This document shows positions 20,327 through 49,813 of a stretch of 64,000 nt of DNA, piece by piece. How positions within the stretch are numbered: the stretch's first letter is position 1; each line of letters begins with the position of its first letter. Below the pieces are notes generated by a model. It was given only the letters and a program-made list of their open reading frames with translations. It was not told where the DNA came from and did no database searches. This DNA is from an uncultured virus (IMG/VR IMGVR_UViG_3300037483_001817). Taxonomy: Duplodnaviria > Heunggongvirae > Uroviricota > Caudoviricetes. Location of the stretch: IMG/VR virus record IMGVR_UViG_3300037483_001817. One strand, written 5' to 3'. A program made the position numbers and the translations under genes.

Positions 20327-23300
20327 GTTTCAACCCACGCGACCGCAACCAGCGATCGCGACCTGACCTCCAAGTGCCGGACGAACGCCAACTCGGATTG
20401 TTTCAACCCGCGCGACCGCAGATAGCGAATCGCGACTGTGCCAAGACCAACTGCAAAGCCGTTTCAACCCGCACGAAGCGCGAAGCGCAACGCATGACCG
20501 GCGGAGGACAGCGGACGCTGCCGTACGCGTTTCAACCCGCGCGAACGCAAACTTCGTTAGCGATCACGACAGCCGTTACGTTTGCCGTTTCAACGGCGTC
20601 GCAGCGGCCCCGATACAGCAGACGGTTTCAACCCGCGCGAACGCAGCCAGCGATCGCGAACTCATCTCGAAGCTGCTGAGCAACGCCATTTCAACCCGCG
20701 CAACCGCAGCCAGCGATCGCGACGTGCACTCGGCGCCATCGCAGCCGATCCGATCGTTCAGTTTCAACCCACGCGACCGCAGACAGCGGTCGCGACCACG
20801 AGTCCGGGCAAGCCCTCGGGCGGAGGGCGAGGGTTTTCAACCTGCGCGACCGCAGCCAGCGATCGCGACGCGAGATACTCGAGATCGTGCATCATCGTTT
20901 CAACCCGCGCGACCGCAGCCAGCGATCGCGGCCTGCTCGCCGAGCTGGTGGCGAAGCGTGTTGTTGTCCGTTTCAACCCGCGCGACCGCAGCTAGCAATC
21001 GTGACGATACTTCCCTACTACCTGCTGTTTCAACCCGCGCGACCGCAGCCAGCGATCGCGACGCCTCGCCGCATCGCCTGAACGGTGTCGGCCGCCGTGT
21101 TTCAACCCGCGCGACCGCAGCCAGCGGTCGCGACCTCGATGAGAAGTTACCAGCGGCCTTCGTGCTTGCCGTTTCAACCCGCGCGACCGCAGCTGGCGAA
21201 CAGCGACGCTCCTCCTCGGAAACGGCCGGGAGGATGTCCAGGTGGTTTCAACCCACGCGACCGCAGACAGCGATCGCGACCGCTCGCACTCGTGGACGGG
21301 CCGAAGCTCCAGTGGTTTCAACCCGCGCGACCGCAGACAGCGATCGCGACGACGCATTCCTCGACGCGCGGATGGAGATTCGGCTTGTTTCAACCCGCGC
21401 GACCGCAGACAGCGATCGCGACCCTGCCACGAGCCACGGCCAGATCCATGACGCCGGAGTTTCAACCCGCGCGACCGCAGCCAGCGATCGCGACGCCTGT
21501 TGGCGACTTCAACGATACTCACGTCGACGGTGTTTCAACCCTCGCGACCGCAGCCAGCGATCGCGACGCGCAAGAGTGATCGGGTGCGCGCGAAGGTGCA
21601 GTCATTTCAACCCTCGCGACCGCAGACAGCGATTAGCGATTCCCTCAAGCACGAGTTGCTGCATGGCGGGTTTCTTGTTTCAACCCTCGCGTCGGCACCC
21701 TCGTCGTTTCAACCCGCGCGACCGCAGACAGTGATCGCGACACCACGAAGCGAGCCACGCCAGGATCGCGGCACGGCTGCTTCAATCCGCGCGACCGCCG
21801 CCAGCGGTCGCGACAACGCTTCCAAGCCGTGCTTCACGGTGCTGATCTGTCGTTTCAACCCGCGCGACCGCAGACAGCGATCGCGACATCTTCGGGCATT
21901 TTGCGTTGGTCATTCGCCGACGATGTTTCAACCCACGCGACCGCAGACAGCGATCGCGACCCTCCATGCGCAGGACCCCGTGCCTGACTACACGATCGTT
22001 TCAACCCGCGCGACCGCAGACAGCGATCGCGACGCGGCACTGGATCGTTCCCACGTGCAAGGGGTGCAAGTTTCAACCCGCACGACCGCAGACAGCGATC
22101 GCGACGAGCTTCAGAGGTGGGGTTGGCGACTTCGTTTCAACCCGCGCGACCGCAGACAGCGATCGCGACGCCGTGGATGGTCCGCGCGGAGTGGCGGCGG
22201 GACTTGTTTCAACCCGCGCGACCGCAGACAGCGATCGCGACCGTCCGCTGGATCCATGCGCCCGTAGCTTTCGCTGCGTTTCAACCCGCGCGACCGCAGA
22301 CAGCGATCGCGACGACTGCGTTGGTGGTCGCGGACAACGTCCGCGTGATCGTTTCAACCCGCGCGACCGCAGACAGCGCTTCGTGACACGCCTGGAGGCG
22401 CCGTGCAGAAGTTCGTTTCGCTCGTTTCAACCCGCGCGACCGCAGACAGCGTTCGCGACAAGGTGCCGTGGACGGTTGGCTCGCTGCGGATGATGTTTCA
22501 ACCCGCGCAACCGCAGACAGCGATCGCGACCTTTCCGAAGGACCTGGCGGCGGACGTCGAGGAGTTATTTCAGCCAGCGCGACCGCAGACAGCGATCGCG
22601 ACGTTCCACAACCAGCTCGCGATCGAGCCTCTACGGTCGTTTCAACCCGCGCGACCGCAGACAGCGATCGCGACTACTGAGGCCAGTGCCCACCAACAGC
22701 GACCCAAGGGTGTTTCAACCCGCGCGACCGAAGACAGCGATCGCGACCCGGCGTACGTCGATGGCGACGGACGCTTTCGAGTGTTTCAACCCGCGCGACC
22801 GCAGCCAGCGATCGCGAACTCATCTCGAAGCTGCTGGGCAACGCCATTTCAACCCACACGACCGCAGCCAGCAACTACAGGCTTGCGTACCCAGCCGTAC
22901 GCCCGCAGACGTCTAGGTGTTTCAACCCGCGCGATTCGCGATATGCCGCAGATCGCAACCGCAGACAACGATTGCGACAGCTAGTTATCGTCCTCGTCGG
23001 GTTCCTCGCTCTCCTCATTTCAACCCTCGCGACCGCCGCCAACGATCGCGACGCTGCTACTCTTCAATAAGGCTCGGCCTCCCATCGTTTCAACCCACGC
23101 GACCGCCGCCAACGATCGCGACGCCATCTCAGGGCACCTCAGCGTCCTTGTTTGTTTGTTTCAACCCGCGCAACCGCAGCCAACGATCGCGACCTGCTCG
23201 CCGAGCAGGCAGTGAAGCGTGTTGTTGTCCGTTTCAACCCGCGAGACGCAGCCAGCGCTCGGAACTCAAGCCAGCGTCGTCGCAACCTCAAGGTCGTAGC

Positions 23301-26300
23301 CGTTTCAACCCGTGCGACCACAGCCAGCGATCGGCCATGGTCCTCGCGACTACGCTGGTTCCCGATCACGTAGTTTGTTTCAACCCGCGCGACCACGGCC
23401 AGTGATCGCGACCTTGTAGCTCGCGCGCGATCTCGAGCAGCGTCCGCGCTATAGGCATCCACTGCACGTTGGTTTCAACCCGCGCGACCGCGACCGCAGT
23501 CGCGACCTGAATCCGCTCCGGGGGATTCTCTGGCACGCCGCGTTTCAACCCGCGCGACCGCAGCCAGCGATCGCAACTGGCTGACGTACGTCGCGTTCAC
23601 GTTGTGGGAGCTGTTTCAAGCTGCGCGATCACGGACAACGATCGCGATGACAAGCTTCCATCCAGCTTCCTGATTGGTGTTTCAACCCGCGCGACCGCGG
23701 ACAACGGCCACGACGCCGCAAATCACGATCATGGATACGCCGATCGAGCCGTTTCAACCTGCGCAACCGCAGTCAGCAATCGCGACCGGCGGCACGCCGG
23801 TCGACTGGATCGTCAATGACGTGTTTGTTTCAACCCGCGCGACCGCAGTCAGCGATCGCGACACTACTCGTCAAGGATCTCGGCTCGCCGACATGGCGGT
23901 TTCAATCCGCGCGACCGCAGCCAGCGATCGCGACGTGACAGAGCGTTCGTTTCAACCCGCGCGACCGCAGCCAGTGATCGCGACTCAAGCCCAGCTACCT
24001 CGGTCGCATGCTCGCGTTCGTTTCAACTCGCGCGACCGCAGACAGCGATCGCAGCGCTTCCGAGCGTCTCGTACGCCTCCTTCATTCGGCGGTTTTTCAA
24101 GCCCGCGCAATCACAGCCAGCTATCACGATCTGGAGGACGTTGCCTGCGAGGGAGAGACCGGTGACGTTTCAACCCGCGCGACCGCAGCCAGCGCTCGCG
24201 ACTCTCCGAGGCCGGGGAGTTTTTACTCGCGCGGCCCGCAGCCCGTGATCGCGACCCCACGCAGCCGAGGAAAGTCCACGGCCATGTCTTCGTTTCAACC
24301 CGCGCCACGTCACCGACAGCTCGTCGCGATTGCTGGCCGTGGCCGTGGTCGCGCGACTTCGCGCAGAGCTGTTTCAACCCACGCGACCGCAGACAGCGAT
24401 CGCGACTTTCCTCAGCGGCATTGCAGCTGTCGCTGGCATCGCGTTTCAACCCTCGCGACCGCAGCCAGCGATCGCGACGCGTGCGCCGGTCTCGGGTACT
24501 GGCTCTACCGGTTGGTTTCAACCTGCACGACCGCAGCCAGCGATCGCGACGGGCCATCTCGCAAACGGCGCGTCGTGACGCGTCGTCGTTTCAACCCGCG
24601 CAACCGCAGCCAGTGATCGCGACGATCTTGCGAGCTTCAGAGGTGGGTTGGCGACTTCGTTTAAACCCGCGCGACCGCAGACAGCGATCGCGACGTTCCT
24701 CGGCACCGTGCCGACGATCGATGTTCACGTGTGTGTTTGTTTGTTTCAACCCGCGCGACCGCAGACAGCGATCGCGACGCCACCTTCGATCGCGCAGACA
24801 TCGCGCATACGGTCGTTTCAACCCGCGCGACCGCAGATAGCGATCGCGACTCTTGAGCTCGCGCTCGTCGGCATCGGTGCCGCCGGGTTTCAACCCGCGC
24901 GACCGCAGACAGCGATCGCGACGTACACCTCCGCATCCACAACAGGCAGGTTTCAACCCACGCGACAGCAGACAGCAATCAGCGATCGCGACACGTCATC
25001 GAGCACTTGCCGTGGGGACGAGACCTCGTGTTTCAACCCGCGCGCCCGCAGCCAGCGGTCGCGACCTTCAACCTCAAGACACTGAGCCAGCACGCCAATC
25101 TCGTTTCAACCGCGCGACAACAGCCTGCGATAGCAGTCAGCGGTCGCGATTGTTGCCGTGCATCACGAGCAGTTTCAACCCGCGCGACCGCAGCCAGCAG
25201 TCGCGACCATCATCGGCGGCATCGTGGCGGTTGCGGGCCTCGCGTTTCAACCCACGCGACCGCAGCGGTCGCGACTTTTGTTTTCCGGCCTCCAACGTGG
25301 TGATCAGTTTCAACCCGCGCAACCGCAGCCAGCACTCGCGACACGCACCGATGATATCGGCTCGTGCTCGTTCGCGCCGGTTCAACCCGCGCGACCGCAG
25401 CCAGCGGTCGCGACCTGACCGGCCGAGATCGTAATCTCGGGAGAGATCACCTGGTTTCAACCCGCGCGACCGCAGCCAGCGGTCACGACCCGCACCATCG
25501 AGGTTCAACCCACGCGACCGCAGACAGTGATCGCGACCTCCTTCTTCGGTGGGGGCGGGGTCGGGTCGACGTTGTTTCAACCCGCGCGACCACAGACAGC
25601 GATCGCGACGCGCGTAATAGCCGCGCCCCAACTCACGTCGGGGTTTCAACCCGCGCGACCGCAAACAGCGATCGCGACTGGTACAGTCAATAGGTGTCGC
25701 TCCACGACTTCTACGTTTCAACCAGCGCGACCGCAGACGTCGATCGCGACGTGGCGCTCGGAGTCGATGAGGCTAGGATTCGCAGCGTTTCAACCCGCGC
25801 GACCGCAGACAGCGCTCGCGACTCTCGATCGCGAGTCCCTTGTTTCAACCCGCGCGACCGCAGACAACACACGCAACACGCAACACGACCTCGCCAGGAT
25901 GTTGACGCTGAGCCGTTTCAACCCGCGCGAACGCAGACAGCGATCGCGACGGAACAACAGACCGTCGGGTGCGGAGGTCGTGCTGTTTCAACCCGCGCGA
26001 CAGACAGCGATCGCGACATCCGAAGTCATCGCCGTTCTGCCGCTTGATCAGCCAGTTTCAACCCGCGCGACCGCAGACAGCGAATCGCGACTCGAGCGCG
26101 TGCACGACCTGCTCGCGTTTCAATCCGCGCGACCGCAGACAGCGATCGCGACCTCCGATTCCGATGCCCAAGCCTCGCTTGGTTTCAACCCGCGCAACCG
26201 CAGAGATCGCGACCTGCCTCACTGCGCGCCAGGATGTTATCCCGCTTGGCGTTTCAACCCAAGCGACCGCAGCCAGTGATCGCGACGATCGGCGTGGCAA

Positions 26301-29300
26301 CGGAGTTCCTCCCGCTGTTCACGTTTCAACCCGCGCGATCACAGCCAGTGGCCGAGCTGGGTACGCCCCGAGCCATGGCCAGATCCATGATGCCGGCGTT
26401 TCAACCCACGCGACAGCAGCCAGTGATCGCGACCATTAGGGCCTTCAGCATTTGAGGCGGCATGCTCGGCATTTCAACCCGCGCAACCGCAGCCAGCGAT
26501 CGCGACGACCTCGGGACCGCAGAACGTCGCACGGTTTCAACCCGCGCGACCGCAGACAGCGATCGCGACAATAGTTCTGCGGCAGGCCGCTGTCGCTGAG
26601 CTTCTTGTTTCAACCCGCGCGACCGCAGACAGCGATCGCGACAAGCCAGCACTTCGTGTGGTCCACACGCGTCGGATGTTTGTTTCAACCCGCGCGACCG
26701 CAAACAGCGATCGTGACGTTGCGCTACCGGCGCTTAACCCTTTGGACATGCCGGTTTCAACCCGCGCGACCGCAGACAGCGATCGCGATGGCGAGCCCTT
26801 CAGCACTTCAGGCGCGATGTCGCGGTTTCAACCCGCGCGACCGCAGACAGCGATCGCGACCTCTCCACCTTTCTTCAAGCTGCGCGACGCGAAGAGTTTC
26901 AACCCACGCGACCGCAGACAGCGATCGCGACTCCAGCGTGTCCAGGACGCCGAGGCCCAACGTGATGTTTGTTTCAAACCGCGCGACCGCAGACAGCGAT
27001 CGCGACCGTGGCTTTCACGCATTGTGCAGGTTGCGGCGCGTTTCAACCCGCGCGACCGCAGACAGCGATCGCGACGGCGGCAAGAAGTGGGGCACGCTTC
27101 GCTGGACCCCGGTTTCAACCCGCGCGACCCGCAGACAGCGATCACGCCTCGCGCTAGCCATCGTCTCGCGCGAAGTTATCGATCTGTTTCAACCCGCGCG
27201 ACCGCGCGACCGCAGACAGCGATCGCGACCGTCGATACCAGCGCGAGGCTACCGAGCCCGAGGACCCTCGAACACGCGCACGGCCTGTCGCGATCACTAT
27301 CTGCGATCGCGACCAGCTATTCCCGACCCTGACCTCGCGGTCGTAGGATGTTTCAACCCGCGCGACCGCAGACAGCGATCGCGACGATCCGATCTCGGCG
27401 CCAATCGAATTTACGCGTCAGGTTTCAACCCGCGCGACCCGCAGACAGCGATCGCGACCAGCTCGACGTCCGCTAGTGGGGCCAGTCCCCAACGGTTTCA
27501 ACCCGCGCGACCGCAGACAGCGATCGCGACCTCAGGGAGGAGCAGCAGGTCTGGCGCGTCGGTCATGTTTCAACCCGCGCGACCGCAGACAGCGATCGCG
27601 ACGAGCCCAGAGGCGCCATCGCCCGATGCTTCCGGTCGTTTCAACTCGCGCGACCGCAGACAGCGATCGTGACGCTGATCAGCACGACGTCGTCAGCGGT
27701 CGGGTCACTGTTTCAACCCACGCGACCGCAGACAGCGATCGCGATACTCCAGATTTGCGTGCGCAATGAGTTGGGCCGTGGGTTTCAACCCGCGCGACCG
27801 CAGACAACGATCGCGACGAGCTTCGACCTCGATCTCGCGGGTGACATGGAGTTCGTTTCAACCCGCGCGACCGCAGACAGCGATCGCGACGACCGGGTTG
27901 CAGCAGGCATCCTCTCGGTCGAGGTGGTTTCAACCCGCGCGACCGCAGACAACGATCGCGACGTGTGCGGACGCCAGTCGGGCTCGTGATAGAGACGGTT
28001 TCAACCCGCGCGACAGCAGACAGCGATCGCGACAATCCCCTGGCGCATCGGAAACGACGGCGTGCTTTTGTTTCAACCCGCGCGACCGCAGATAGCGATC
28101 GCGACAAGCTTTCACCGCCTCGCGGGGTCGGTGTTGCCCACATGTTTCAACCTGCGCGACCGCAGACAGCGATCGCGACCTGTCATGGGGGCATTCCTAG
28201 GGCTGGGAGTTTTCGAGTTTCAACCCGCGCGACCGCAGACAGCGATCGCGACACTTTGGATCGCCGACGATCCCGTAGTGCCTCTCGAGGTTTCAATCCG
28301 CGCGACCGCAGACAGCGATCGCGACGCGCTTGCCAACCATCTTCGCTGGGGTCGTGACGCTGTTTCAACCCGCGCGACCGCAGACATCGATCGCGACCTC
28401 CTGGGTTGACCCCTCGCGCGACGGCCGAGATCAAGTTTCAACCCGCGCGACCGCAGACAGCGATCGCGACGCCCCTTGATGCTCGCCCCGCCGCCGATCG
28501 CCGCATAGTTTCAACCCGCGCGACCGCAGACAGCGATCGCGACCTGGTGCGGTAAAAAAAGCTGCCACCGTCTGGAGTTGTTTCAACCCGCGCGACCGCA
28601 GACAGCGATCGCGACGTCGATGATCTCGTCGACGTACCTCTCTTCATGCGCGTTTCAACCCGCGCGACCGCAGACAGCGATCGCAACTTCCGGTCAACGC
28701 TTCCCTCGCGTAGCTCACGTCGTTTCAACCCGCGCGACCGCAGACAGCGATCGCGACGCGGACAAGTGCGTCCTTTGGGCGCCGGTTGTTTCAACCCGCG
28801 CGACCGCAGACAGCGATCACGACCCGCCGGCTGCTTCAGATACGCCATCGCGGTCGGCCAGTTTTAACCCGCGCGACCGCAGACAGCGATCGCGACCCTC
28901 TTGAGGCCGCTCCTGCGATACGAGTCCGAGGTATTTCAACCCGCGCGACCGCAGACAGCGATCGCGACACTCACTTCGACGGAGAACAAGGAGCTTCGCG
29001 AAACGTTTCAACCTGCGCGACCGCAGACAGCGATCGCGACCGGATTTGACAGAGCAGTCTCGTCGGCGTAACTCTGTTTCAACCCGCGCGACCGCAGCCA
29101 GCGATCGCGACCGTACCCAACCCCGGCGCCACGAGCTGATAACTCGTGTTTCAACCCGCGCGACCGCAGACAGCGATCGCGACTGTTGGTGTTTCGCCCG
29201 GGTCGTCGGTGAGCAGTCGCTTGTTTCAACCCGCGCGACCGCAGACAGCGATCGCGACCTGCCGCTGATCCTCGCCGGTGATACGCCTGCTATTGGTTTA

Positions 29301-32300
29301 AACCCGCGCGACAGCAGACAGCGTTCGCGACGCCGTGCCGACCAGCGCCCAGCCAAGACCTGCGTTGGTTTCAACCCGCGCGACCGCAGACAGCGATCGC
29401 GACATCACCATCGCTCTGGCCACGCCCGACGGACTCGATGTTTCAACCCGCGCGACCGCAGACAGCGATCGCGACCCGGCCGGCATGCTTTGTGGCGGAG
29501 AGCGTAGGAATCGTTTCAACCCGCGCGACCGCAGACAGCGATCGCCACCGTCCTCGACGGTCCCAACAATACACATCGGAGTTTGTTACAACCCGCGCGA
29601 CCGCAGACAGCGATCGCGACTCCGTCGATCGAGACACGGGGCTCCGAGGGAGAGTTGTTTCAACCCGCGCGACCGCAGACAGCGATCGCGACGGCGGCCG
29701 TTGGGCGCGCCTGCGGATCCGTCTGAATGTTTCAACCCGCGCGACCGCAGACAGCGATCGCGACGAGAGGGTGCTCCACGCGATGTCGTACGCCTCGTCA
29801 ACGTTTCAACCCGCGCGACCGCAGACAGCGATCGCGACCAGCCAGAGCGGGGGTCCTCGCTGCGAGCTCACCGATGTTTCAACCCGCGCGACCGCAGACA
29901 GCGATCGCGACTCGGCATGGTGACGATCTCCGTCGTTCACGACCTGTCGTTTCAACCCGCGCGACCGCAGACAGCGATCGCGACCTGGCGTTGACCGGAT
30001 GGGGAGGAGAACGTCCGACGGTTTCAACCCGCGCGACCGCAGACAGCGATCGCGACGAGCGGTCTCCGCTACGACCGGTTGCAGCATCAGGTGGTTTCAA
30101 CCCGCGCGACCGCAGACAGAGATCGCGACGGCAGTTCACGATGCGGACGTGCCCGTTCGCGAGGTTGACGTTTCAACCCGCGCGACCGCAGACAGCGATC
30201 GCGACAGCTGCGACTGCGGTCCGGTTAGAGTCACGTGGTGCTGTTTCAACCCGCGCGACCGCCGACAGTGATCGCGACTCGCCGCCTTGCGCCCCAACAT
30301 TGAGGAAATTCATGTCGTTTCAACCCGCGCGACCGCAGACAGCGATCGCGACAAGCCGTCGTTTCTTCATGTCACGGCATTACGGCCTGTTTAAACCCGC
30401 GCGACCGCAGACAGCGATCGCGACTGGAGTCGGACTTCCCGGTCGAGGGCTGGTGCCACTGTTTCAACCCGCGCGACCGCAGACAGAGAGATCGCGACGT
30501 CTTGCGTCGTCCTCATCGACGCGGTGGTGTCACAGTTTCAACCCGCGCGACCGCAGACAGCGATCGCGACCCGATATAGCGGGACATCTCAGCCGCCTCC
30601 GCTGGGGGTTTCAACCCGCGCGACCGCAGCCAGCGATCGCGACGCGGCCGTGCCCTCGGGCCGCAGGACGATCTCGACGTTTCAACCCGCGCGACCGTAG
30701 ACAGCGATCGCGACCTGGGCCAGGACTTCGCCGCCACTCTCGGTGTGAGGGTTTCAACCCGCGCGACCGCAGACAGCGATCGCAACATACGCGTGCCCAT
30801 GTAGCGAGGGGCAAGTGGGACGATTCAACCCGCGCGACCGCAGACAGCGATCGCGACCGGCCGCCAGGATCCCGCCGAGTCCGGCGTGGTAAACGTTTCA
30901 ACCCGCGCGACCGCAGACAGCGATCGCGACCGGAGCGAGACCTCGACACGGCCAGCGGCGGCGTTGTTTCAACCCGCGCGACCGCAGACAGCGATCGCGA
31001 CGGGGTCGCAACTGTCGACTGACTGATAGTGTCCGGTTTCAACCCGCGCGACCGCAGACAGCGATCGCGACTTCCGGTCGCGTCGTCGACGATCTGGGCA
31101 GCAACCCTGTTTCAACCCGCGCGACCGCAGACAGCGATCTCGGCCCGATATAGCGGGACATCTCAGCCGCCTCCGCCGGGGATTTCAACCCGCGCGACCG
31201 CAGATAGCGATCGCGACCTGCGCGCTCGACTCCGCGGCTGCACTCATCGGGCAGTTTCCACCCGCGCGACCGCAGACAGCGATCGCGACCGCCGCCAACG
31301 CGAATCACCAACGGCGTTTGCAGGCAGTTTCAACCCGCGCGACCGCAGACAGCGATCGCGACAGGCCACCAGAAGGGCCTCAAGTAGCAACTCAAGGTTG
31401 TTTCAACCCGTCGTCCGCCTCAAGCCCGAGTGGATCTGGTTTCAACCCGCGCGACCGCAGACAGCGATCGCGACGTACCCCACCCACGGCGCCGCGAGTT
31501 ACAGCCCGCGGTTTCAACCCGCGCGACCGCAGACAGCGATCGCGACGGTCTTCCGACCAGGCTCGGCGTCGCTTGGACGACGGTTTCAACCCGCGCGACC
31601 GCAGACAGCGATCGCGACCTGGAGTCGGACTTCCCGGTCGCGGGCTGGTGCCACTGTTTCAACCCGCGCGACCGCAGACAGCGATCGCGACGTCCTCCCC
31701 GTCGCGAGCTTCGTCCTCGTCGGCGGTGTTTCAACCCGCGCGACCGCAGACAGCGATCGCGACCCGTGGATGGTCCGCGCGGAGTGGCGGCGGGACTTGT
31801 TTCAACCCGCGCGACCGCAGACAGCGATCGCGACCGTTGATTCGTTGTTGCGCTGTTCGCGCTTCTGCCTGTTTCAACCCGCGCGACCGCAGACAGCGAT
31901 CGCGACGCCGTCCGTGATCTCGATTGTCTTGCTGAGCGCGTTGTTTCAACCCGCGCGACCGCAGACAGCGATCACGACGTCGTGAACTCGTGCCGTCGCA
32001 ACACACAAACGAGCTGTTTCAACCCGCGCGACCGCAGACAGCGATCGCGACGCGCAACTTGAATCAGGCGAGGGCCACGTCCCAGTCGTTTCAACCCGCG
32101 CGACCGCAGACAGCGATCGCGACAGTCTCCGCGCAAGATCGGCGGACGAGTTGAGTACGTGTTTCAACCCGCGCGACCGCAGACAGCGATCGCGACTCGC
32201 TCAACCAAGCCGCAAATGAAGCGCTGTTTCTTGGTTTCAACCCGCGCGACCGCAGACAGCGATCGCGACGGCGTCGTAGAGCGGGCGCAGGTGGGGTGCG

Positions 32301-33504
32301 GCGTTGTTTCAACCCGCGCGACCGCAGACAGCGATCGCGACCCTGCTTCGCCCACGTCGGCGCGAATGCGTCTTGATGTTTCAACCCGCGCGACCGCAGA
32401 CAGCGATCGCGACGAGCGCGTCGATACAGAGCTCAAGGCACTCGGTCTGGTTTCAACCCGCGCGACCGCAGACAGCGATCGCGACCTGCGAGGCTCACGG
32501 CGTGCCCACGATCACTGACTACGTTTCAACCCGCGCGACCGCAGACAGCGATCGCGACGTGTTCTCCGCCTGGCTCGCGAGCTTGCGCATGTTCGTTTCA
32601 ACCCGCGCGACCGCAGACAGCGATCGCGACACCTTCGAGGCCGACGCTGAGACACTGACTACACTTGTTTCAACCCGCGCGACCGCAGACAGCGATCGCG
32701 ACACCGATCGACTCATCGCGTGGGCCAGCTATCAGGGCTGGTTTCAACCTGCGCGACCGCAGACAGCGATCGCGACGTCGGCTGAACAACCAGAATCGAG
32801 CTCGGGTCCTGATGTTTCAACCCGCGCGACCGCAGACAGCGATCGCGACGACGATCAAGGCGGTGCTTCTTGCCTGGGACGTCTGGTTTCAACCCGCGCG
32901 ACCGCAGACAGCGATCGCGACCTTCCGATCGAGATCATCGGAGCGCAAGCGTGGTGGTTTCAACCCGCGCGACCGCAGACAGCGATCGCGACTCGCCGAC
33001 CGTCGGCGGGTAGCCCTCGCGCTGCTCGTTGTTTCAACCCGCGCGACCGCAGACAGCGATCGCGACCAGTTCGGATCGTCATACCAGAGCGTCCAGAGCT
33101 CGTGGTTTCAACCCGCGCGACCGCAGACAGCGATCGCGACGTGCCAAGGTACGGTCGTGGTGGCCGAGCCGGCTGCTGTTTCAACCCGCGCGACCGCAGA
33201 CAGCGATCGCGACTCGGCGCGACATCGGCGACCGCGCACCGTCCGCGGCGTTTCAACCCGCGCGACCGCAGACAGCGATCGCGACGGCGGCGCGTACCAC
33301 AAGGTCACGTGGGACGAGTGGCAGTTTCAACCCGCGCGACCGCAGACAGCGATCGCGACCTCACTGGGGCAGCGAGGACAGTATTCGGTGGTATTTGTTT
33401 CAACCCGCGCGACCGCAGACAGCGATCGCGACACGTGCGATCGGTGCAGCTCACGAGCGCCACCCGTTGTTTCAACCCGCGCGACCGCAGACAGCGATCG
33501 CGAC
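20327..33504 (-). CRISPR. large type I-C-like CRISPR array, roughly 180 repeats (estimate)
   Basis: 36-nt repeat GTCGCGATCGCTGTCTGCGGTCGCGCGGGTTGAAAC (minus strand) with 9-bp stem and 3' GAAAC; ~34-38 nt spacers; perfect near 33504, degenerate toward 20327; partial repeat at 20302-20319. Confidence 0.99.
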
Positions 33505-33681
33505 AGCAGTGCCTAAAAAAGGCATCAGGCCGTGCACTTCCAACGTAGAAGCGCACGACCTGCATTGTTCAATCATGAACGACTATGCAATTGTCAGAGA
33601 CCTCCGAGATTCCCAACGAATCTCGAACCGTAGCGTGGCGAGCGGCTCAGCCGCTTGCGGTCAGCACGCCACCGCTCGCGG
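33505..33681 (-). promoter_or_regulatory. CRISPR leader
   Basis: Non-coding and AT-richer, between the cas7 stop and the best-conserved repeat; contains GCGAGCGG/CCGCTCGC inverted repeats. Confidence 0.75.
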
Positions 33682-34764
33682 TCAGCTCACCGCGTCGTCG
33701 ACCGCCTCATCGCCCGCGTCGTCGCTCGGCGGCGGAGGCGCGTGCAGACCGAGGTGGTCGTAGGCAACCTTGCGGTTGAGCGAGAGCACCGAACCCTCGC
33801 GCACGTAGATGTCCACCCCGTGAACCATGGTGAGCCGGTTGCGGATCTTCCGCTTGAGGCACACGTCGGTCACGAAGCACTTGTGCGTGTACGAGTTCAC
33901 GCGCGGGTGGTTCGCGTTGTCTGGATCACCGTTGGGGTTGGATCGGATCGCCTCCCAGATCAGCCACGCGTCCCAGCGATTCCCGATGACGGCGTCCTCT
34001 GCCAAGCCGGCCATCACGTGAGCGGCCGACATCTCCGGGTGCAGATCGATCACGAAGATCTCGACGTTGGGCGTGGGCGATGCGCCGACAACAACGTCGA
34101 AGTCACTATAGCTCTGCGGATCCGGCACCCTCTGCTGGATGTTGATCAGCTCGCGCAGGAGGGCCGGCGAGCAGTCGCCGCGCTTGGACGCGTGCTTGGC
34201 GATGATGAGCTTGCGCACCGCCAGCATGGGACGTGTCGCCGACGCGTCGTTGTCGAAGATGTGGAGGCAGTCGTCGTAGAACCGCCCGAGATCGCGGTTG
34301 GTCATGCCCGACTTGTCCGCCCAGAACGGATTGACGCTGATTGGCGTGAAGAAGAGAGCGTAGTCCACGATCCACTTGGACCCCATGGTCTGGTTCGCGT
34401 CCTGGTTGTCCGCCAGCGTCTCGTTGGCGACCGCGACGCGCGTGATCGGCACCTCCAGGATGTGCGGAATGTTCACCGAGTTGGTGATCTCGAGCTGGAT
34501 CGGGCCGTGGAGCGAACCCGCGTCGTAGCCTCCCTCGCCCTTACCTGCGAGTACACCGCCGAACAGCCTCAGATCCGGATAGATCTGAACGAGGTGTCCC
34601 TGGGCGGCGGCCGACATCCTGTCGCGATCTTCGTAGCCGACCTTCGCCTTGGCGCCGTTGCCGTTCTTGCCGTTGCCGTTGCCGTTGCCATTCTTGCCGT
34701 TGCCGTTCTTGTCGTGGTTCGGACTCTTCGCTGGCTTCTTCATTTTCTTGGTTCTCTCTTTCAC
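33682..34764 (-). CDS. cas7: type I-C Cas7 (Csd2), circularly permuted; ATG at 34743 is an alternative start
   Basis: DLRLFG, GPIQL, ITRVAV, TMGSK, FDNDASA.R and RKLII.KH precede NPNGDPD..N.PR..VTDVCLKRKIRN. Confidence 0.93.
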   Translation of the reverse strand: MKERTKKMKKPAKSPNHDKNGNGKNGNGNGNGKNGNGAKAKVGYEDRDRMSAAAQGHLVQIYPDLRLFGGVLAGKGEGGYDAGSLHGPIQLEITNSVNIPHILEVPITRVAVANETLADNQDANQTMGSKWIVDYALFFTPISVNPFWADKSGMTNRDLGRFYDDCLHIFDNDASATRPMLAVRKLIIAKHASKRGDCSPALLRELINIQQRVPDPQSYSDFDVVVGASPTPNVEIFVIDLHPEMSAAHVMAGLAEDAVIGNRWDAWLIWEAIRSNPNGDPDNANHPRVNSYTHKCFVTDVCLKRKIRNRLTMVHGVDIYVREGSVLSLNRKVAYDHLGLHAPPPPSDDAGDEAVDDAVS

Positions 34765-34806
34765 CTTTTCGTTTTCGTCGTCACGTGTCTTATCTCGGTG
34801 TTGTTG

Positions 34807-35331
34807 TCAGTCGTCGTTGTCCTCCTCGTCCTGGTCCCCGTCGTCGGACAAGGACTGCTTCGGGACTTCGACCTCTTGCGCGCGAGCGCGAGCTGCCGTC
34901 CGCTTGCGGTACTCTTCCCACAACCACCCCGTGTAGTTGTTGAAGCCGATCCAGAACAGCATCTGCTCTTCCTTGGTGAGCCGCTGTGGGATTTGCGCCA
35001 GGCTCAGCTCTGCTTCGTCGGTCTCCGTGAGCGGTCCCTGGACACCGAGACGCGTCACCAGGGCGTTCATGCGCTGCTGGGACAGCATCGCCATGCCCTG
35101 CCGCCGCTTGCTGTTGAGCTTCTTGATGTGCTTGGTGTGCAGCGTCAGCACGTCGGGAAGGACGTTGTACGGGCTCTGCACGATCTCGGTTCGCGACAAG
35201 CTCGAATGTTGGGGATGGTTGATCGCGATGTTCTGGACGTAGTTCGCCTCGGCCATGATGCAGCCGATAACCATCGGGATCGGCATCACGATGAGGTTCT
35301 GACTCTTGAGAGGATCTGCGTGAATCGTCAC
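34807..35331 (-). CDS. cas11: internally translated Cas11 small subunit (predicted)
   Basis: In-frame GTG at 35331 preceded by AAAGGA, just after LLKLDLIR; matches the known I-C internal start arrangement. Confidence 0.6.
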   Translation of the reverse strand: MTIHADPLKSQNLIVMPIPMVIGCIMAEANYVQNIAINHPQHSSLSRTEIVQSPYNVLPDVLTLHTKHIKKLNSKRRQGMAMLSQQRMNALVTRLGVQGPLTETDEAELSLAQIPQRLTKEEQMLFWIGFNNYTGWLWEEYRKRTAARARAQEVEVPKQSLSDDGDQDEEDNDD

Positions 35332-36864
35332 TGGTATTCCTTTTCGGATGAGATCGAGTTTGAGCAGACTGCACCGAACCGGCAGCAGCCGCCGCCATTG
35401 CTTGCGGCCGTCGTTGTCGCCGGGATACGTGTTGCAGCGCTTCAGCGCTGCCGCCGCAATCTCCACGGGAACGCGCTCACCCTGGAGAATGCAGCGCAGC
35501 ATCCCGTCGACGGTGCTGGACGGAAACCGCTCGTCCATGCGCGTGCGCAGTGCCGCCAGGAGCTGCGAAAGCGGTCGAGGCCGGCTACTGCTAGGGATCG
35601 GCAAGGTCATGTCGTCCATGTACTGCTGGATGCGCCGCCGCAGATCGCCGATCGTGCCGCTGACCGCATTCCGGTACACGACGCGGCCGTTGTCGGAGAT
35701 CAGCAGGGAGTGGAAGTAGTCCTCGCGGAACAGCGGCATGGTGCGGCCCGTACGATGAACCGCGAGCAATTCCTCCACGACCTTCTCGTCGGCCTCGACC
35801 GCCAACAGCTCGCGCACGGACGCCTCGTCCGCCACTTCGATCCGCAGGAACGTCTCGGCCGGCTCAATACTCGGTCCCGCGATCAGCGCTGTCACGGCCC
35901 CGCGGACCGGCATCTCCGTATGCGGATCGCCGGTCCAGATGAGAAACACTGCGTCGCCAGGTTGAGGTTTGCCCGAGCTATTGAGGTACACGCCGCCGCG
36001 CGGCTTGTAGCGCGCGCCGATCGTTCCGTCGGCGCGCTTGAACGGAATGGCCACGCGCTCTAGCAACAAATTCGCAGCGGCGGCCACGCCTTCGGCGACG
36101 TCTTGGCTGACAGGGGCGTTCGCTCCCTGTAGCAGACCGAAGGAACACCAGGCCGGCTGGTTGTTCGACGAGAGAGCCGAGCTGCCGCCCTTCGCTCCGG
36201 GCAACCCCTTGATCGGCGGCTGCGTGTTGCACAGAGGACCGCGCCGACCCGTGACAATGCACGTGATCATCTCTCCGCCAGCGCCGCCTGACTGGATCGG
36301 ACGGTGCGCGCGGATCCACTCCTTCACGCGAGGGCTCTCGTAGACCGGTACCAGCGCGTTGTTCGCGCGAACGACGACCGTGACCCACTCCGAGCCCGTC
36401 AGCGGCTTCCCGTCGCTCCAGCCGAGGCACTTGACGGCAGCCTCCGCCGGAGTCCCATACGTGCCGTCCGCGAGGTCGTCGACGAACTGCGACAGGGCCT
36501 CGGCGTAGGGGTCGCGCGTATCCACGGCCATCTGCCGTAGGTGATCTCGATAGACGCCTTGCAGCTCGAGTCCGCGCTGCGCGACCTTCGCGGCTCTCGC
36601 CGCCGTCGTCGCTTTCGCATCGGTCTTGTGGGCGGTGTAGCACGCGACAGATTCCACGACGGCACTGACCGTGTTGCCTGACGTACGCCCCGATTGCATG
36701 GGCGCACGCAGTGTCACGTAGGGCTCGGTACCCGACGTGATGCGTTGACCAGCGAGCCAGCGACCTTTCAGATCGATGACGATCTGATAGTCCACTCGGC
36801 GATCCGCGAAACCTGGATCCACCAGGTTCTTGCGCTCCGCGTAGCTGAAGAGGTTGTGGTGCAT
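34807..36864 (-). CDS. cas8c: type I-C Cas8c (Csd1)
   Basis: RTSG, CIVTG..P.IKG, SSNN..SFG..QG.NAPVS, EEQ..F.IGF; lies between cas5 and cas7. Confidence 0.92.
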   Translation of the reverse strand: MHHNLFSYAERKNLVDPGFADRRVDYQIVIDLKGRWLAGQRITSGTEPYVTLRAPMQSGRTSGNTVSAVVESVACYTAHKTDAKATTAARAAKVAQRGLELQGVYRDHLRQMAVDTRDPYAEALSQFVDDLADGTYGTPAEAAVKCLGWSDGKPLTGSEWVTVVVRANNALVPVYESPRVKEWIRAHRPIQSGGAGGEMITCIVTGRRGPLCNTQPPIKGLPGAKGGSSALSSNNQPAWCSFGLLQGANAPVSQDVAEGVAAAANLLLERVAIPFKRADGTIGARYKPRGGVYLNSSGKPQPGDAVFLIWTGDPHTEMPVRGAVTALIAGPSIEPAETFLRIEVADEASVRELLAVEADEKVVEELLAVHRTGRTMPLFREDYFHSLLISDNGRVVYRNAVSGTIGDLRRRIQQYMDDMTLPIPSSSRPRPLSQLLAALRTRMDERFPSSTVDGMLRCILQGERVPVEIAAAALKRCNTYPGDNDGRKQWRRLLPVRCSLLKLDLIRKGIPVTIHADPLKSQNLIVMPIPMVIGCIMAEANYVQNIAINHPQHSSLSRTEIVQSPYNVLPDVLTLHTKHIKKLNSKRRQGMAMLSQQRMNALVTRLGVQGPLTETDEAELSLAQIPQRLTKEEQMLFWIGFNNYTGWLWEEYRKRTAARARAQEVEVPKQSLSDDGDQDEEDNDD

Positions 36865-36873
36865 GTCTCGCTC

Positions 36874-37506
36874 CTACTGTTGAGTTGCCGCCACGACGGC
36901 CTGGTAGGAGGGAATGCGGACGGAGCCGTTCACGAGGCGCGCGTCGAACATCAGCGGCTCGGGAGGCGACTTCTTGAAGTTTCGTCCGTACAACATCGGA
37001 CCGAGGGGGCGATCGACACCCTGCTCGATCGTCTGGTAGCTCTCGGGCGCCTCCATGAGGTCGCAGACGAACGGGAACATTCCGAAGCACGGCGTATGGT
37101 GGAGCTGCCCGCGCCTCAGGTAGCGCTCGAACATCTCCGTGAATGCGGTGACATTGTGCTGTGCCTTGTCATCCAGCTCGAAATAGGCGGTGAACACGTA
37201 GTCGACGTCGTACAGACCGACCGTGTTGCGCTGCGTGCGTACGTCTTCCACGTTGAAGGGCTGGCCCGAGGAGCCGGTGCACGTCACTTCGTTCGTACGC
37301 ATGTTGAAGTAACGGATCGGGCGCAGGACCTCGATCAACGTCGGCCTCCAGTGGAGTCCAGGGTGCCAAAGCACCGCTTCGAAGATGCCCACGATCGCCG
37401 ACGGAGTCGGCACGTCGTACGTCAGCCGCTCGACGCGGCACAGCGGTCGGGTAATGACCGCGCGCTCGGCCTTTGCCCGAATCTTGAAGTCTTTACTGCG
37501 TTGCAT
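36874..37506 (-). CDS. cas5: type I-C Cas5 (Cas5c/Cas5d)
   Basis: TRP..RVER.TYDVPTPSA..GI.EA..W.P, VL.PIR, NEV, QR, GQ..H.P.FG; GAGGAGG RBS. Confidence 0.93.
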   Translation of the reverse strand: MQRSKDFKIRAKAERAVITRPLCRVERLTYDVPTPSAIVGIFEAVLWHPGLHWRPTLIEVLRPIRYFNMRTNEVTCTGSSGQPFNVEDVRTQRNTVGLYDVDYVFTAYFELDDKAQHNVTAFTEMFERYLRRGQLHHTPCFGMFPFVCDLMEAPESYQTIEQGVDRPLGPMLYGRNFKKSPPEPLMFDARLVNGSVRIPSYQAVVAATQQ

Positions 37507-37827: not shown

Positions 37828-39927
37828 TCAAGCGTCGAGTAGGCCGAGCTGGTCGTAGCTTCGGGTGCCGCGCAGGTAGACGACGGCATCCGCCACCCAA
37901 CGCGCGCGGTCTTGTTGCAGGTATCGATCGCGCTCCTCGACCGCAACCCAGATCACGAAGTCCATGAGCTGCCGCAGTAGCAACTTGTCGGGTCCATGTG
38001 CGGCCAGGCGTTTGATCAACGCCTTGACAGATTCCTGCCCCTCGCGCGGCGGTGCGGGAACCACGATGGGCACCAAGCCGGCATCGCCGAGCGCCACGTC
38101 GCCCGGCACGGGATGCCTCCCACCGACGCGCAGGGTCTTGCCGGCGAGGGTGCGAAAGCGCAGTTGCTCGCGATCGCGCTGTAGATCCTCCGCCCACGTA
38201 CAACGACCGCGGCTGAGCTTCAGGTCTCGATCGTAGCTGTCCCACGTCATCTTCGCGGTGAGCTGGAGAGGGCCGTCCAGCAATAGCAGCTGAGTCACGT
38301 GTGCTTCGAGCGAGAGCTCAGCCGCCGGGAAAACGCGGTACGCACCGGCACGATGATCACCGGCGTCTGCACGCTGGCTCGTAACGGTGATCGATGGCAG
38401 GTCGGACATCTCGCGCCAGACAACCCCGAAGGTCACGTCGCGCGTCTCGCCCACGGAATCCGTGGCGAGGCGCAGCGGCCTCCCCTCGCGCTTGTGATCG
38501 TGCACCACGCGGAGCACCTCGCGTCTGTCTCTCGGACACATGCGCGACGACAGATAGAACCAACGCCGCGTTCCAGCAACGTCCGCAAACGAGCGCATCG
38601 ATCGTGGGCTGTTCCACACGACGAGACAATCTGGGTGCGTACGTGTCTTCAGGCTGCGGAGTAGCTTCCGGGGCGTCGGAACCTTGGCGCGCGGCTTCGG
38701 CCACGTCGCCGCAGTCCTGGGTTCAAGGCGCCCGAACGCCTCCGGCATCCCGATTTCTCTGGCGCCCTCGACGATCGGATAAGGGACGGTCGAGACGAAC
38801 GTGACGGTCGATCGAAAGTGCGCAACCAAGGTCCTCAAGGTGTCGACGACAACGGGCGCGATCGGTGCGGGCAGTCGCCACGCGTCTTCCACCAAGACCA
38901 TGGCGCACGCGATTCGATGCAGGCGACGGCACGAGGCTGGACGGTTGTCGAACAAGAGACCGACAACGTCGCGCAGCGTCGTGGCGATAACCGGCGCATC
39001 CCAGTCTTCGATCGCGACGGGGATACCGCGGTTTCGCGAATAAAAGGCAGACGGCACGACGATCGCTTCACCAAGGATTCCTCGCAGCTCCTCCACGCGC
39101 TGCTCAAGCGCGGCCTGTGTCGCGCAGACAATGACGACGCGCTGTAGGCCGTGCCGGACGGCATGCCCCACCGCATAGCAAGCCAAGCTCCGCGCGTCGA
39201 CGATGCTCGACGGCGCCGAGAGCTGATACCAGCCCAAAGGTTCGGTGGAGATCTGCTCACACGTGTGCCAGAAAGCATCACGGAGGCGCGTCAGCTCGTC
39301 GCGCTTAGTCCAATGCCGTGGAGGATGCGCGAGCAAGCGTTCGTGTAAGCTCGCTAGATTCACAGGCTGCGGAGTGGGTTGCGGCGTGTCCGACACGCTG
39401 GCTTCCCATGCTTGTGCTTCCGCACGATCGGCATCGACGTGCGCCGAGAAGATGAGGCGCGTGAAGAGCTCGCGGTGCGCGGTGCCAGAGAAGCTGCGCG
39501 ATGCAATGCGATGCCCGAGAATCCCCGGCGCGATGTCTCGTAAGCAGTGGCTGTAGGTCGCGCCTTCCGTGCAGATGCCAGGCAGCTCGCTCAGATCAGG
39601 AATTCCTGCGTGCGTTCCTGCGATCGCGAGAGCGACCAACTCTCGAACCTCTGCGGGCAGCCAGCGGCACGCGTACCACGCGCCGACGAACGAATGGTTC
39701 ACGCGATCGTTCGCGAACGGAACACGCACGTGTTTCTGAAACTCGACAGCGGCCTTGCCTAGGTCGGACCACAGTGCGGCGACATGGGCTTCAGGTGCGC
39801 AGCCAAAGAGCGCGGCCAGATTACGCGCACGCGCTGCGGTCGCTCGAATGTCCTCATCTAACGATCGCACGTAGCGACCCGCAGATCGCGCTATCAGCTG
39901 TGTCGTCTTCGCCATGCCCTTGTTCAC
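37828..39927 (-). CDS. cas3: Cas3-like protein with degenerate HD nuclease and SF2 helicase motifs
   Basis: SDLGKA..FQ, NHS..GA, FSAHVDAD, EDWDAPVIATT, CRRLHRIA, LSSRMCP retained in order; catalytic motifs substituted. Confidence 0.88.
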   Translation of the reverse strand: MNKGMAKTTQLIARSAGRYVRSLDEDIRATAARARNLAALFGCAPEAHVAALWSDLGKAAVEFQKHVRVPFANDRVNHSFVGAWYACRWLPAEVRELVALAIAGTHAGIPDLSELPGICTEGATYSHCLRDIAPGILGHRIASRSFSGTAHRELFTRLIFSAHVDADRAEAQAWEASVSDTPQPTPQPVNLASLHERLLAHPPRHWTKRDELTRLRDAFWHTCEQISTEPLGWYQLSAPSSIVDARSLACYAVGHAVRHGLQRVVIVCATQAALEQRVEELRGILGEAIVVPSAFYSRNRGIPVAIEDWDAPVIATTLRDVVGLLFDNRPASCRRLHRIACAMVLVEDAWRLPAPIAPVVVDTLRTLVAHFRSTVTFVSTVPYPIVEGAREIGMPEAFGRLEPRTAATWPKPRAKVPTPRKLLRSLKTRTHPDCLVVWNSPRSMRSFADVAGTRRWFYLSSRMCPRDRREVLRVVHDHKREGRPLRLATDSVGETRDVTFGVVWREMSDLPSITVTSQRADAGDHRAGAYRVFPAAELSLEAHVTQLLLLDGPLQLTAKMTWDSYDRDLKLSRGRCTWAEDLQRDREQLRFRTLAGKTLRVGGRHPVPGDVALGDAGLVPIVVPAPPREGQESVKALIKRLAAHGPDKLLLRQLMDFVIWVAVEERDRYLQQDRARWVADAVVYLRGTRSYDQLGLLDA

Positions 39928-48747: not shown

Positions 48748-49743
48748 CTACCTCTTGAGATCCTCGTAGCGCAGGGCGATCGGCATCTTCTCGACTGCCT
48801 CGCGCTTGCCCTTCTCACCGCGGCGATCGTAGATGGCCGTCGTCTTGACGTCGGAGTGGCCCATGAGCTTCTGCACCATGAGGATGTCGGCCCCGTTCTC
48901 GAGCAAGTCCGTGGCGAACGTGCGGCGCAGATCGTGCGGCGTTAGATCGGCGACCCCCGACAGTGTGACAAGCGCGCCGAGCACGTAGTCGACACCCGCG
49001 CGGCCGAGGCGCCTCGTCGTGGGCCCCTTGTCGTGGGCCCAGCGAACAAACAATGGAATGCAACCGCGCTCCTTCTGGTACTCGAACCACGGCAAAAGCC
49101 ACGGCCGGTAGCCCTCGGCGAGGTACGTCTCGCGGAACTTGCCGCGCTTACCGCGTTTGACCGTGAGCGCACCAGTGGCAGGGTCGTAGTGCTCGGTGTC
49201 GAGCGAGGACACCTCCTGACGACGAAGACCCCCGGCGAACATCGCGATGAACAACGCCTGATCACGCCAGCTCCAGGGCGCTTCCTGCCCGGCGGCGGCA
49301 CGTAGGAGAATACGGACCTCGTCGATCGAGACCGCACGGCCGGCGGGCGGCAAATCCGCCGTCTTCATGCTTTTGAAATCGAGTGCCCGTTGGTAATCCT
49401 CGGTCTCGATCTGTTCGAGCTGCCACGCCGCCTTGAGCACGCCGCGTAACGCCGACAGCATCCGGTTGACTGTGCGCTCGCCGTAGCTCGAGACGAGCGC
49501 AGATCGAATCGCCTGCGTGTGCTGGAAACGGAGCTCGTGCCACGGTAGCGTCCACTGTGTTGCTCTCCGATCGACAAGCTCCGCGATCGTCGCGAGGCTC
49601 GACTTCATCGCCGGCCGCGAGTCCTCTCCGAGCTTGGCTAGGTAGACGGCGACGGGATGCACCGCCAGGTTGATTCCGCGCGGGACGTCCAGATCGGCAG
49701 CAGCGCGCGGTTGGTGGGCAAGAGCGAGAGGTTCGCGGGCCAT
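48748..49743 (-). CDS. tyrosine recombinase/integrase
   Basis: GLRRQE (R), GKRGK (K), HDLRR (HxxR), MGHSD (H), TAIYDRR (Y); N-terminal core-binding domain. Confidence 0.95.
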   Translation of the reverse strand: MAREPLALAHQPRAAADLDVPRGINLAVHPVAVYLAKLGEDSRPAMKSSLATIAELVDRRATQWTLPWHELRFQHTQAIRSALVSSYGERTVNRMLSALRGVLKAAWQLEQIETEDYQRALDFKSMKTADLPPAGRAVSIDEVRILLRAAAGQEAPWSWRDQALFIAMFAGGLRRQEVSSLDTEHYDPATGALTVKRGKRGKFRETYLAEGYRPWLLPWFEYQKERGCIPLFVRWAHDKGPTTRRLGRAGVDYVLGALVTLSGVADLTPHDLRRTFATDLLENGADILMVQKLMGHSDVKTTAIYDRRGEKGKREAVEKMPIALRYEDLKR

Positions 49744-49813
49744 GCCCCAGCCTACCAGCCTACTTGCGAGAACCACTATTCAATCAAGTGCATGAAGTAG
49801 CCGAAATCAGGGC

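Follow-up and report, generated by a model that had tools for sequence, protein, structure and literature searches.

The type I-C locus and the element that carries it

The 64,000-nucleotide stretch of DNA that was analysed (hereafter, the window), taken from an IMG/VR record of an uncultured virus and with a G+C content of 63.5%, carries four cas genes next to a CRISPR array, all of them on the same strand (Table 1). The gene set is that of type I-C, since cas3, cas5c, cas8c and cas7c adjoin the array and no cas6 was found among the ORFs scanned. The PADLOC Cas3c match of the Cas3 protein given in the table has a score of 234.6 bits and covers residues 7-693; the protein is also recognized by an HD domain model and matches the solved Cas3 chains 8zns_A and 8g9u_P. 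The repeat RNA is predicted to fold, at -17 kcal/mol (z -2.9), into a stem of 10 bp that is interrupted by one 1-nt bulge and closed by a loop of 5 nt, leaving 10 nt unpaired at the 3' end; such a hairpin with a short single-stranded 3' end is the typical shape of type I-C repeats. Towards the far end of the array (~20327-27500), the repeats are degenerate and irregularly spaced.

Table 1. Features of the cas locus on the minus strand, with the parts of the permuted cas7c gene listed in the order of the protein chain.
Feature	Position	Strand	Description
cas3	37828..39927	-	699 aa; HD domain and helicase; PADLOC Cas3c 7.2e-70
cas5c	36874..37506	-	210 aa; TIGR01876 90 bits (cut-off 85); PADLOC Cas5c 4.6e-40
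cas8c	34807..36864	-	685 aa; PF09709 2.7e-48; PADLOC Cas8c
Circularly permuted cas7c	33682..34764	-	360 aa; GTG start at 34764; stop codon 33682-33684
N-terminal tail, residues 1-45	34630..34764	-	K-rich, (N-G)n repeats; pLDDT <50 at 1-41
Residues 46-240, canonical C-terminal two thirds	34045..34629	-	D.R.FG motif, thumb, to last strand
Linker, residues 241-258 (~20 aa)	33991..34044	-	Old C-terminus to old N-terminus
Residues 259-344, canonical N-terminal third	33733..33990	-	NRW, NPNGDPD, CLKRKIRN, AY..LGL
C-terminal tail, residues 345-360	33685..33732	-	PPPP, then acidic stretch, tip D-D-A-V-S
Leader	33505..33681	-	177 nt, from cas7 stop codon to first repeat
CRISPR array	20327..33504	-	36-nt repeat; at least 157 repeats detected, ~180 by length

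Among the 56 other ORFs of the window that were scanned, none matched Cas1, Cas2, Cas4 or Cas6, and Cas1 was likewise found in neither of two related viral records (G001 and G002). The array of about 180 spacers hence has no adaptation genes beside it among the ORFs scanned, and these may lie elsewhere in the genome. Comparison of the spacers with the remainder of the window and with the loci retrieved gave nothing convincing, and a megablast search of the array against phages returned no match.

The surroundings of the locus encode an integrase, an HNH endonuclease, a ParB-like protein, a PAPS-reductase-like protein, a 2OG-Fe(II) oxygenase, an ATP-grasp protein and a deoxynucleotidase. Accessory genes of phage type are gathered between 42008 and 52511, where the deoxynucleotidase, VWA, HAD_SAK_2 and ClpX-type zinc-finger proteins and the HNH endonuclease are found together with the integrase (48748-49776, minus strand), the ATP-grasp protein, which is of the R2K type, and the 2OG-Fe(II) oxygenase. 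The capsid (PF05065) and terminase (PF03237) profiles matched neither of the two related viral records, so that the label "phage" rests on the IMG/VR classification and on PHROG matches of accessory genes. The surroundings look like those of a phage or of another large mobile element, which is accordingly called phage-like here and not a proven phage.

Type I-C variants have been described from huge phages (Al-Shayeb et al. 2020, PMC7162821), where, according to the main text of that paper, they are Cas5d-like, lie on large phage genomes and lack Cas1 and Cas2. The window resembles them, as far as that text goes, in carrying a type I system without Cas1 and Cas2 on a large element. In contrast, a helicase replaces Cas3 in the published variant, whereas the window encodes a complete Cas3c with its HD domain; and the arrays of those phages are small, with a median of six repeats, against about 180 in the window. 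The word "Cas7" is absent from the main text of the paper, which hence mentions no permuted Cas7.

A circular permutation of Cas7c

The cas7c reading frame, translated from the minus strand, extends from its GTG start over 360 residues without an internal stop; an alternative start is the ATG at 34743 (residue 8), where the homolog P0002 begins. The plus-strand translation of 33682..34764 was also considered and was rejected as an antisense frame on its GC3, which is 0.63 as against 0.87 in the minus frame. The antisense ORF to which it belongs (802 aa, 33655-36063, plus strand) covers cas7 and part of cas8c, and is regarded as a by-product of the high G+C content, given its GC3 of 0.63 in comparison with 0.81-0.87 in the real genes.

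An earlier note, made from the sequence alone, had proposed that this gene encodes a circularly permuted Cas7, and the translation bears out the order of motifs on which the proposal was based. DLRLFG, GPIQL, ITRVAV, TMGSK, FDNDASATR, RKLIIAKH and SYSDF precede NRWD and NPNGDPD, the latter lying at 33919-33939, which by arithmetic from the ORF corresponds to residues 276-282; NRWD and NPNGDPD are then followed by TDVCLKRKIRN, IYVRE and AY..LGL, all without a stop between the two halves. The note had further anticipated that an alignment to Cas7c would give two matches in swapped order, and this is what phmmer returned; the profiles matched in two stretches each, a single collinear alignment being obtained with none of the models tried. 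When compared with solved chains by phmmer, residues 62-231 of the query correspond to residues 113-282 of the 290 residues of 7kha_B (D. vulgaris Cas7c), and residues 259-344 to residues 3-92 of the same chain. The same swapped result was obtained with 9jhb_C, and 8g9s_B was also matched in two stretches.

Profile models lead to the same picture. The PF05107 match (1.4e-57, 195.6 bits with a cut-off of 33.2) falls into two stretches, the best of which covers profile positions 76-247 of 249, and in the permuted relative encoded by G001, positions 76-248 and 2-76 both match. Each of three NCBIfam Cas7 models and all eight PADLOC Cas7b/c models match the window protein in two stretches. TIGR01595 scores 154.7 (cut-off 125.8), and positions 5-60 of TIGR02590 correspond to residues 267-323 of the protein. 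TIGR02589, the model of type I-C Cas7, scores 181.5 bits, just below its curated cut-off of 182.25, a shortfall that is attributed to the splitting of the match in two. The collinear order of N-terminal and C-terminal parts that belongs to the Cas7c/Csd2 family is thus not found here: the protein is homologous, and its topology differs. The window protein is a true circular permutation of Cas7c.

In its motifs and its partners, the protein keeps to its family. All family motifs of the Cas7c of type I-C Cascade (D. vulgaris 7KHA and 8DEX; N. lactamica 8G9S; 9JHB) are present, each of the two parts is about 30-40% identical to the solved proteins, and the partners Cas3, Cas5c and Cas8c are the same. 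Unlike in the solved Cas7c, the two parts of the chain have changed places, about 20 linker residues connect the old ends, and the new ends lie in a helical loop, with a basic tail of ~45 aa on one side and an acidic tail of ~16 aa on the other. The old ends themselves are complete, since neither the last strand (VEIFVID) nor the residues that open the canonical chain ahead of NRW have been lost, and about 15 extra residues lie between them; the linker (residues 241-258) has no Cas7c match by phmmer and varies among homologs. A tract of the hexanucleotide AAC GGC at ~34653-34707 encodes the NG repeats of the N-terminal tail; the length of this tract differs between sequencing runs and homologs, always in frame, and the length of the whole N-terminal tail varies among the homologs of alignments A1 and A2.

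A swapped order could in principle be produced during assembly, either by a chimeric join or by the wrap-around of tandem copies, and the earlier note had named a misassembled junction as a point to be checked. Part of the stretch is present in 24 public runs, none of them an RNA run, and at least 75% of the sampled words were recovered in each of three runs from three studies. A contig of 1212 nt (X1) covers 33478-34689 with 0 differences, and thereby the first repeat, both parts of the protein and the linker; contigs of X3 cover 33602-34084 and 34070-34348; and a contig from a different study (X4), about 95% identical, covers 33864-34689. X2 shows no depth over much of the cas7 gene, from which nothing is concluded. 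One of the best-matching runs is possibly the window's own source, which X4, as a divergent relative, cannot be. The contigs of other runs do end at the NG-repeat tract (34653-34707), as might be expected if the order were an artefact, but this is the only point at which they break, and the junction between the two parts is crossed by single contigs of X1, X3 and X4 from different studies. The same architecture moreover recurs in assemblies made independently of one another (JGI, ENA, Logan and IMG/VR), and the gene lies in the middle of the window, between cas8c and the array. The swapped order is therefore almost certainly not an assembly artefact.

The structure of the protein was predicted with AlphaFold2 from a 12-row alignment of permuted proteins, with a mean pLDDT of 74.2 and a pTM of 0.73. 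Values of 90 or more are reached by 139 residues, which are found in both parts of the protein, and values below 50 are restricted to residues 1-41, 75-77, 111-126, 174-177 and 344-360; residues 111-126 form the tip of the thumb, where low values are expected of the flexible Cas7 thumb. In the linker region, pLDDT averages 70 over residues 241-250 and rises to 93 over residues 251-260. The ten best Foldseek matches are all type I-C Cas7 chains (E 1.2e-9; TM 0.57-0.61 by target length), and VIA-align places residues 46-240 of the model on residues 97-290 of the chain (Z 13.1-13.2, rmsd 2.8, 187-188 residues). It is nevertheless important to note that the structural aligners used keep the order of the sequence, with 187-195 residues, those of the first part, superposable on Cas7c, and that the placement of the second part consequently rests on the AlphaFold2 confidence. 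Thus, the superposition on Cas7c that the earlier note had called for succeeded for the first part, the second part being beyond the reach of order-keeping aligners. A prediction of two copies as a dimer (residues 42-345) gave no answer, with a score of 0.00. Taken as a model, the permuted Cas7 is predicted to have a normal fold, with a confident core and disordered tails.

Relatives, break site and origin of the tails

The permuted architecture is common to 11 distinct sequences, with identities of 46-97%; a search for other permuted homologs had been suggested in the earlier note. Eight of these proteins (P0002-P0009), retrieved from a collection of 5.8 billion proteins, are 57-95% identical, align over nearly their full length and show the same order (alignment A1); below them in the same search, scores drop to canonical Cas7c whose alignments extend over only about half the query. 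Two IMG/VR viral contigs, L001 (a 221-kb record) and L002 (a 78.6-kb record), encode an identical permuted Cas7 of 393 aa, which is 46% identical to the window protein and also has a K/NG-rich N-terminal tail and an acidic C-terminal tail. The order of the genes is that of the window (cas3, cas5, cas8, cas7, array), and these four cas genes, at 36-49% identity, are all that the window has in common with the two contigs, which suggests that the cas module diverged as a unit. An acidic C-terminal tail of Cas8c is present in both permuted-Cas7 systems, at 34807-34860 in the window and at the end of L002:7568-9712. In the 221-kb viral record (G001), to which CheckV assigns a completeness of 100%, nothing but the permuted gene matches Cas7.

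In order to place these proteins among canonical ones, a two-part phmmer classification was used in place of a motif-only scheme, which had left 29 of 269 proteins unclassified and had mis-filed one of them (P0249). Among the 269 sequences gathered up to then, 10 were classified as permuted and 259 as canonical, and among 125 loci, 2 were permuted, 119 canonical and 4 partial. None of the three matching GenBank phage records and none of the 95 matching PLSDB plasmid records covers 80% or more of the query in one place; among the matches listed from these two sources, the query is matched in two pieces, as in genes of canonical order, with the exception of one match in a single piece covering 48%. 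Trees were built on a re-ordered alignment of the two parts, and in these the core permuted clade forms one branch, with a support of 1.0 in FastTree (271 rows) and of 100 in a quick IQ-TREE run (62 rows). Judged from these trees, the core clade has a single origin.

Conservation within the clade bears on the question of whether the gene is still in use, as it could also be a non-functional relic, that is, a pseudogene of a rearranged cas7 in a decaying system. The absence of adaptation genes nearby and the degenerate repeats at the far end of the array would fit decay; against this, the ORF is intact in the 11 distinct sequences down to 46% identity, and the family motifs are invariant across the permuted clade (alignments A1 and A2). 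Furthermore, all five of the X4 differences that lie in the structured part, among those listed (73 more are unlisted), fall on third codon positions, the fold is predicted with confidence, and Cas3, Cas5 and Cas8 are intact too, having diverged along with Cas7. Altogether, a relic is very improbable.

The boundaries of the core clade do not encompass all permuted proteins. One of them, P0139 (325 aa), comes from a Logan contig 24,352 bp long; its chain is opened in the same loop as in the core clade, and it has a similar N-terminal tail, K-rich and with G/N/S repeats, but no acidic C-terminal tip. Its identity to the canonical P0261 is 49%, as against 34% to the window protein, and it groups beside P0261 with a support of 0.997 (FastTree) and 99 (IQ-TREE). 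Under LG+G4, a model that tends to over-reject somewhat according to the documentation of the tool, an AU test with 34 rows rejected a single clade of the core proteins and P0139 (p 0.011, delta lnL 31.9), with the constrained search unfinished. No close relative of P0139 turned up in the collection of 5.8 billion proteins, where, besides P0139 itself, only the permuted P0009 covered more than 63% of it (83%). The other example is P0249 (335 aa, from a JGI contig of 302,685 bp), which is permuted at a different loop, the cut lying between FGAVL and RGPIQ; it is labelled as Csh2 by its source, and the printed sequence begins with V. In the FastTree tree, P0249 is closest to P0149, a protein with a charged insert in the loop that is cut in P0249. 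Two scans of viral contigs returned nothing on the genomic context of either protein, and a metagenome scan returned only an unrelated weak match (L126). Both P0139 and P0249 look like separate permutation events on the basis of these comparisons, although each of them is a single record and thus a lead rather than a result.

The break was located by the earlier note in a variable loop that separates the AY..LG helix from the D.R.FG motif, and this position indeed proves to be the most length-variable segment of the family. In the 199 of 259 canonical proteins in which both anchors are present, the segment from CLKRKIR to D.R.FG measures 33-198 aa (median 63, SD 21), whereas the segment ahead of it has an SD of 5.8. 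The closest relatives with canonical order, the metagenomic proteins P0123, P0124, P0261, P0243 and P0134, of which P0123 is the best-scoring canonical match to the window protein (183 bits, 40% identity), contain an acidic and then a basic, K/NG-rich stretch inside this loop, at the same position as in the window protein; unlike in the latter, the loop is closed and the chain follows the usual order. The order of acid before base is found in 19 of the 20 canonical proteins with strong charge blocks. As the canonical relatives already have such a disordered insert, the tails are halves of that loop, inherited and not newly added, and the permutation has opened a charged loop that was there before. 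Of the claim that the new termini carry new disordered tails, the disorder is thus upheld by the low pLDDT of residues 1-41 and 344-360, but the novelty is not, given that canonical loops are already charged.

The tip of the C-terminal tail has been kept across the core clade despite insertions and deletions ahead of it. It reads D-D-A-V-S in four of the nine rows of alignment A1 (the window protein, P0002, P0006 and P0007) and also in P0009 and P0272 of alignment A2; the other five rows of A1 have acidic variants of the tip ending in M-S, M-T, E-S or D-D-A.

As to how the permutation may have come about, a route by duplication, fusion and trimming can be inferred: cas7c would have been duplicated in tandem, the two copies would have been fused in frame, and the outer halves would then have been lost, leaving the halves of the loop as a basic N-terminal tail and an acidic C-terminal tail. 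No intermediate form of this route was found among the relatives. A canonical Cas7c of 488 aa (P0122) contains an exact internal repeat of about 200 residues, which may be a real duplication or an assembly artefact; it shows only that partial cas7c duplications appear in assemblies. The loop at the break site is not described in the consulted portions of the papers on the solved structures (PMC7684278; bioRxiv 10.1101/2023.08.05.552134). According to the N. lactamica study, Cas7c tolerates C-terminal tags and fusions, which fits an exposed old C-terminus.

Probable role of the permuted subunit and possible role of its tails

All class 1 CRISPR effectors are built on a backbone of repeated Cas7 subunits. 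The product of the gene described here is most probably a functional Cas7c subunit in the backbone of a type I-C Cascade, encoded on a large phage-like element and with a chain that has been permuted. In this chain, the equivalent of canonical residues ~97-290 comes first, followed by the linker of about 20 aa and the equivalent of residues ~3-92, and the fold, the thumb and the RNA-binding surface would be as usual in Cas7c. About seven permuted copies would coat a crRNA that has been cut by Cas5c, Cas8c would read the PAM, and Cas3 would degrade the target DNA. Since the cut lies in a disordered loop at the surface, the permutation was probably close to neutral for the core role in Cascade.

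Alternatively, the permutation may have been adaptive, the freed halves of the loop having become functional tails. Two variants of this idea can be considered: the acidic C-terminal tip could possibly be a docking motif for Cas3, for Cas8c/Cas11c or for the basic tail of the neighbouring subunit; or a brush of about seven basic tails could possibly hold DNA during the target search or block the binding of anti-CRISPRs. Several observations are in line with adaptation, among them the conservation of the acidic tip across the core clade, be it as D-D-A-V-S or as an acidic variant, the changes in length of the NG tract, which stay in frame (+15 nt in X4, and varied in all homologs), the acidic tail of Cas8c in both the window and L002, and the apparent second origin of a permutation in the same loop in P0139. 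However, the charged segments are already present as a closed loop in canonical relatives, so that the charge needs no permutation; P0139 has no acidic tip; the tails are predicted to be disordered and hence have no structural support; and no docking partner was identified. An adaptive permutation is rather unlikely, and near neutrality remains the preferred reading.

A more far-reaching proposal would bring all the permuted proteins together. In this view, Cas7c would have undergone natural permutation repeatedly, in the core clade, in P0139 at the same loop and in P0249 at a second loop. The driver would have been the cutting of a charged disordered loop, by which each Cascade gains some seven free basic tails and as many acidic ones, with the acidic tip docking or regulating a partner, or shielding the backbone from anti-CRISPRs. 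This is a speculative idea, to be held with even more reserve than adaptation as such; if it were true, giant phage-like elements would carry a type I effector with an additional, new layer of regulation.

In the literature searched, mostly at the level of titles and abstracts, no circularly permuted Cas7 from nature was found. The only "circular permutation" of Cas proteins found in that literature concerns the HD domain of Cas10 in type III systems, where the term refers to the order of motifs in a nuclease domain and not to the Cas7 fold.

Proteins of this kind fall into a blind spot of annotation: with their match split and a score just under the TIGR02589 cut-off, they may be under-named by pipelines. 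The protein indicates that the Cas7c fold tolerates both the joining of its old ends and the opening of a helical loop. The loop would thus be a permissive site for new termini, which could be useful in the design of Cascade fusions for gene activation or editing. Finally, if the tails are functional, they would represent an unrecognised way of tuning Cascade in the competition between mobile elements.
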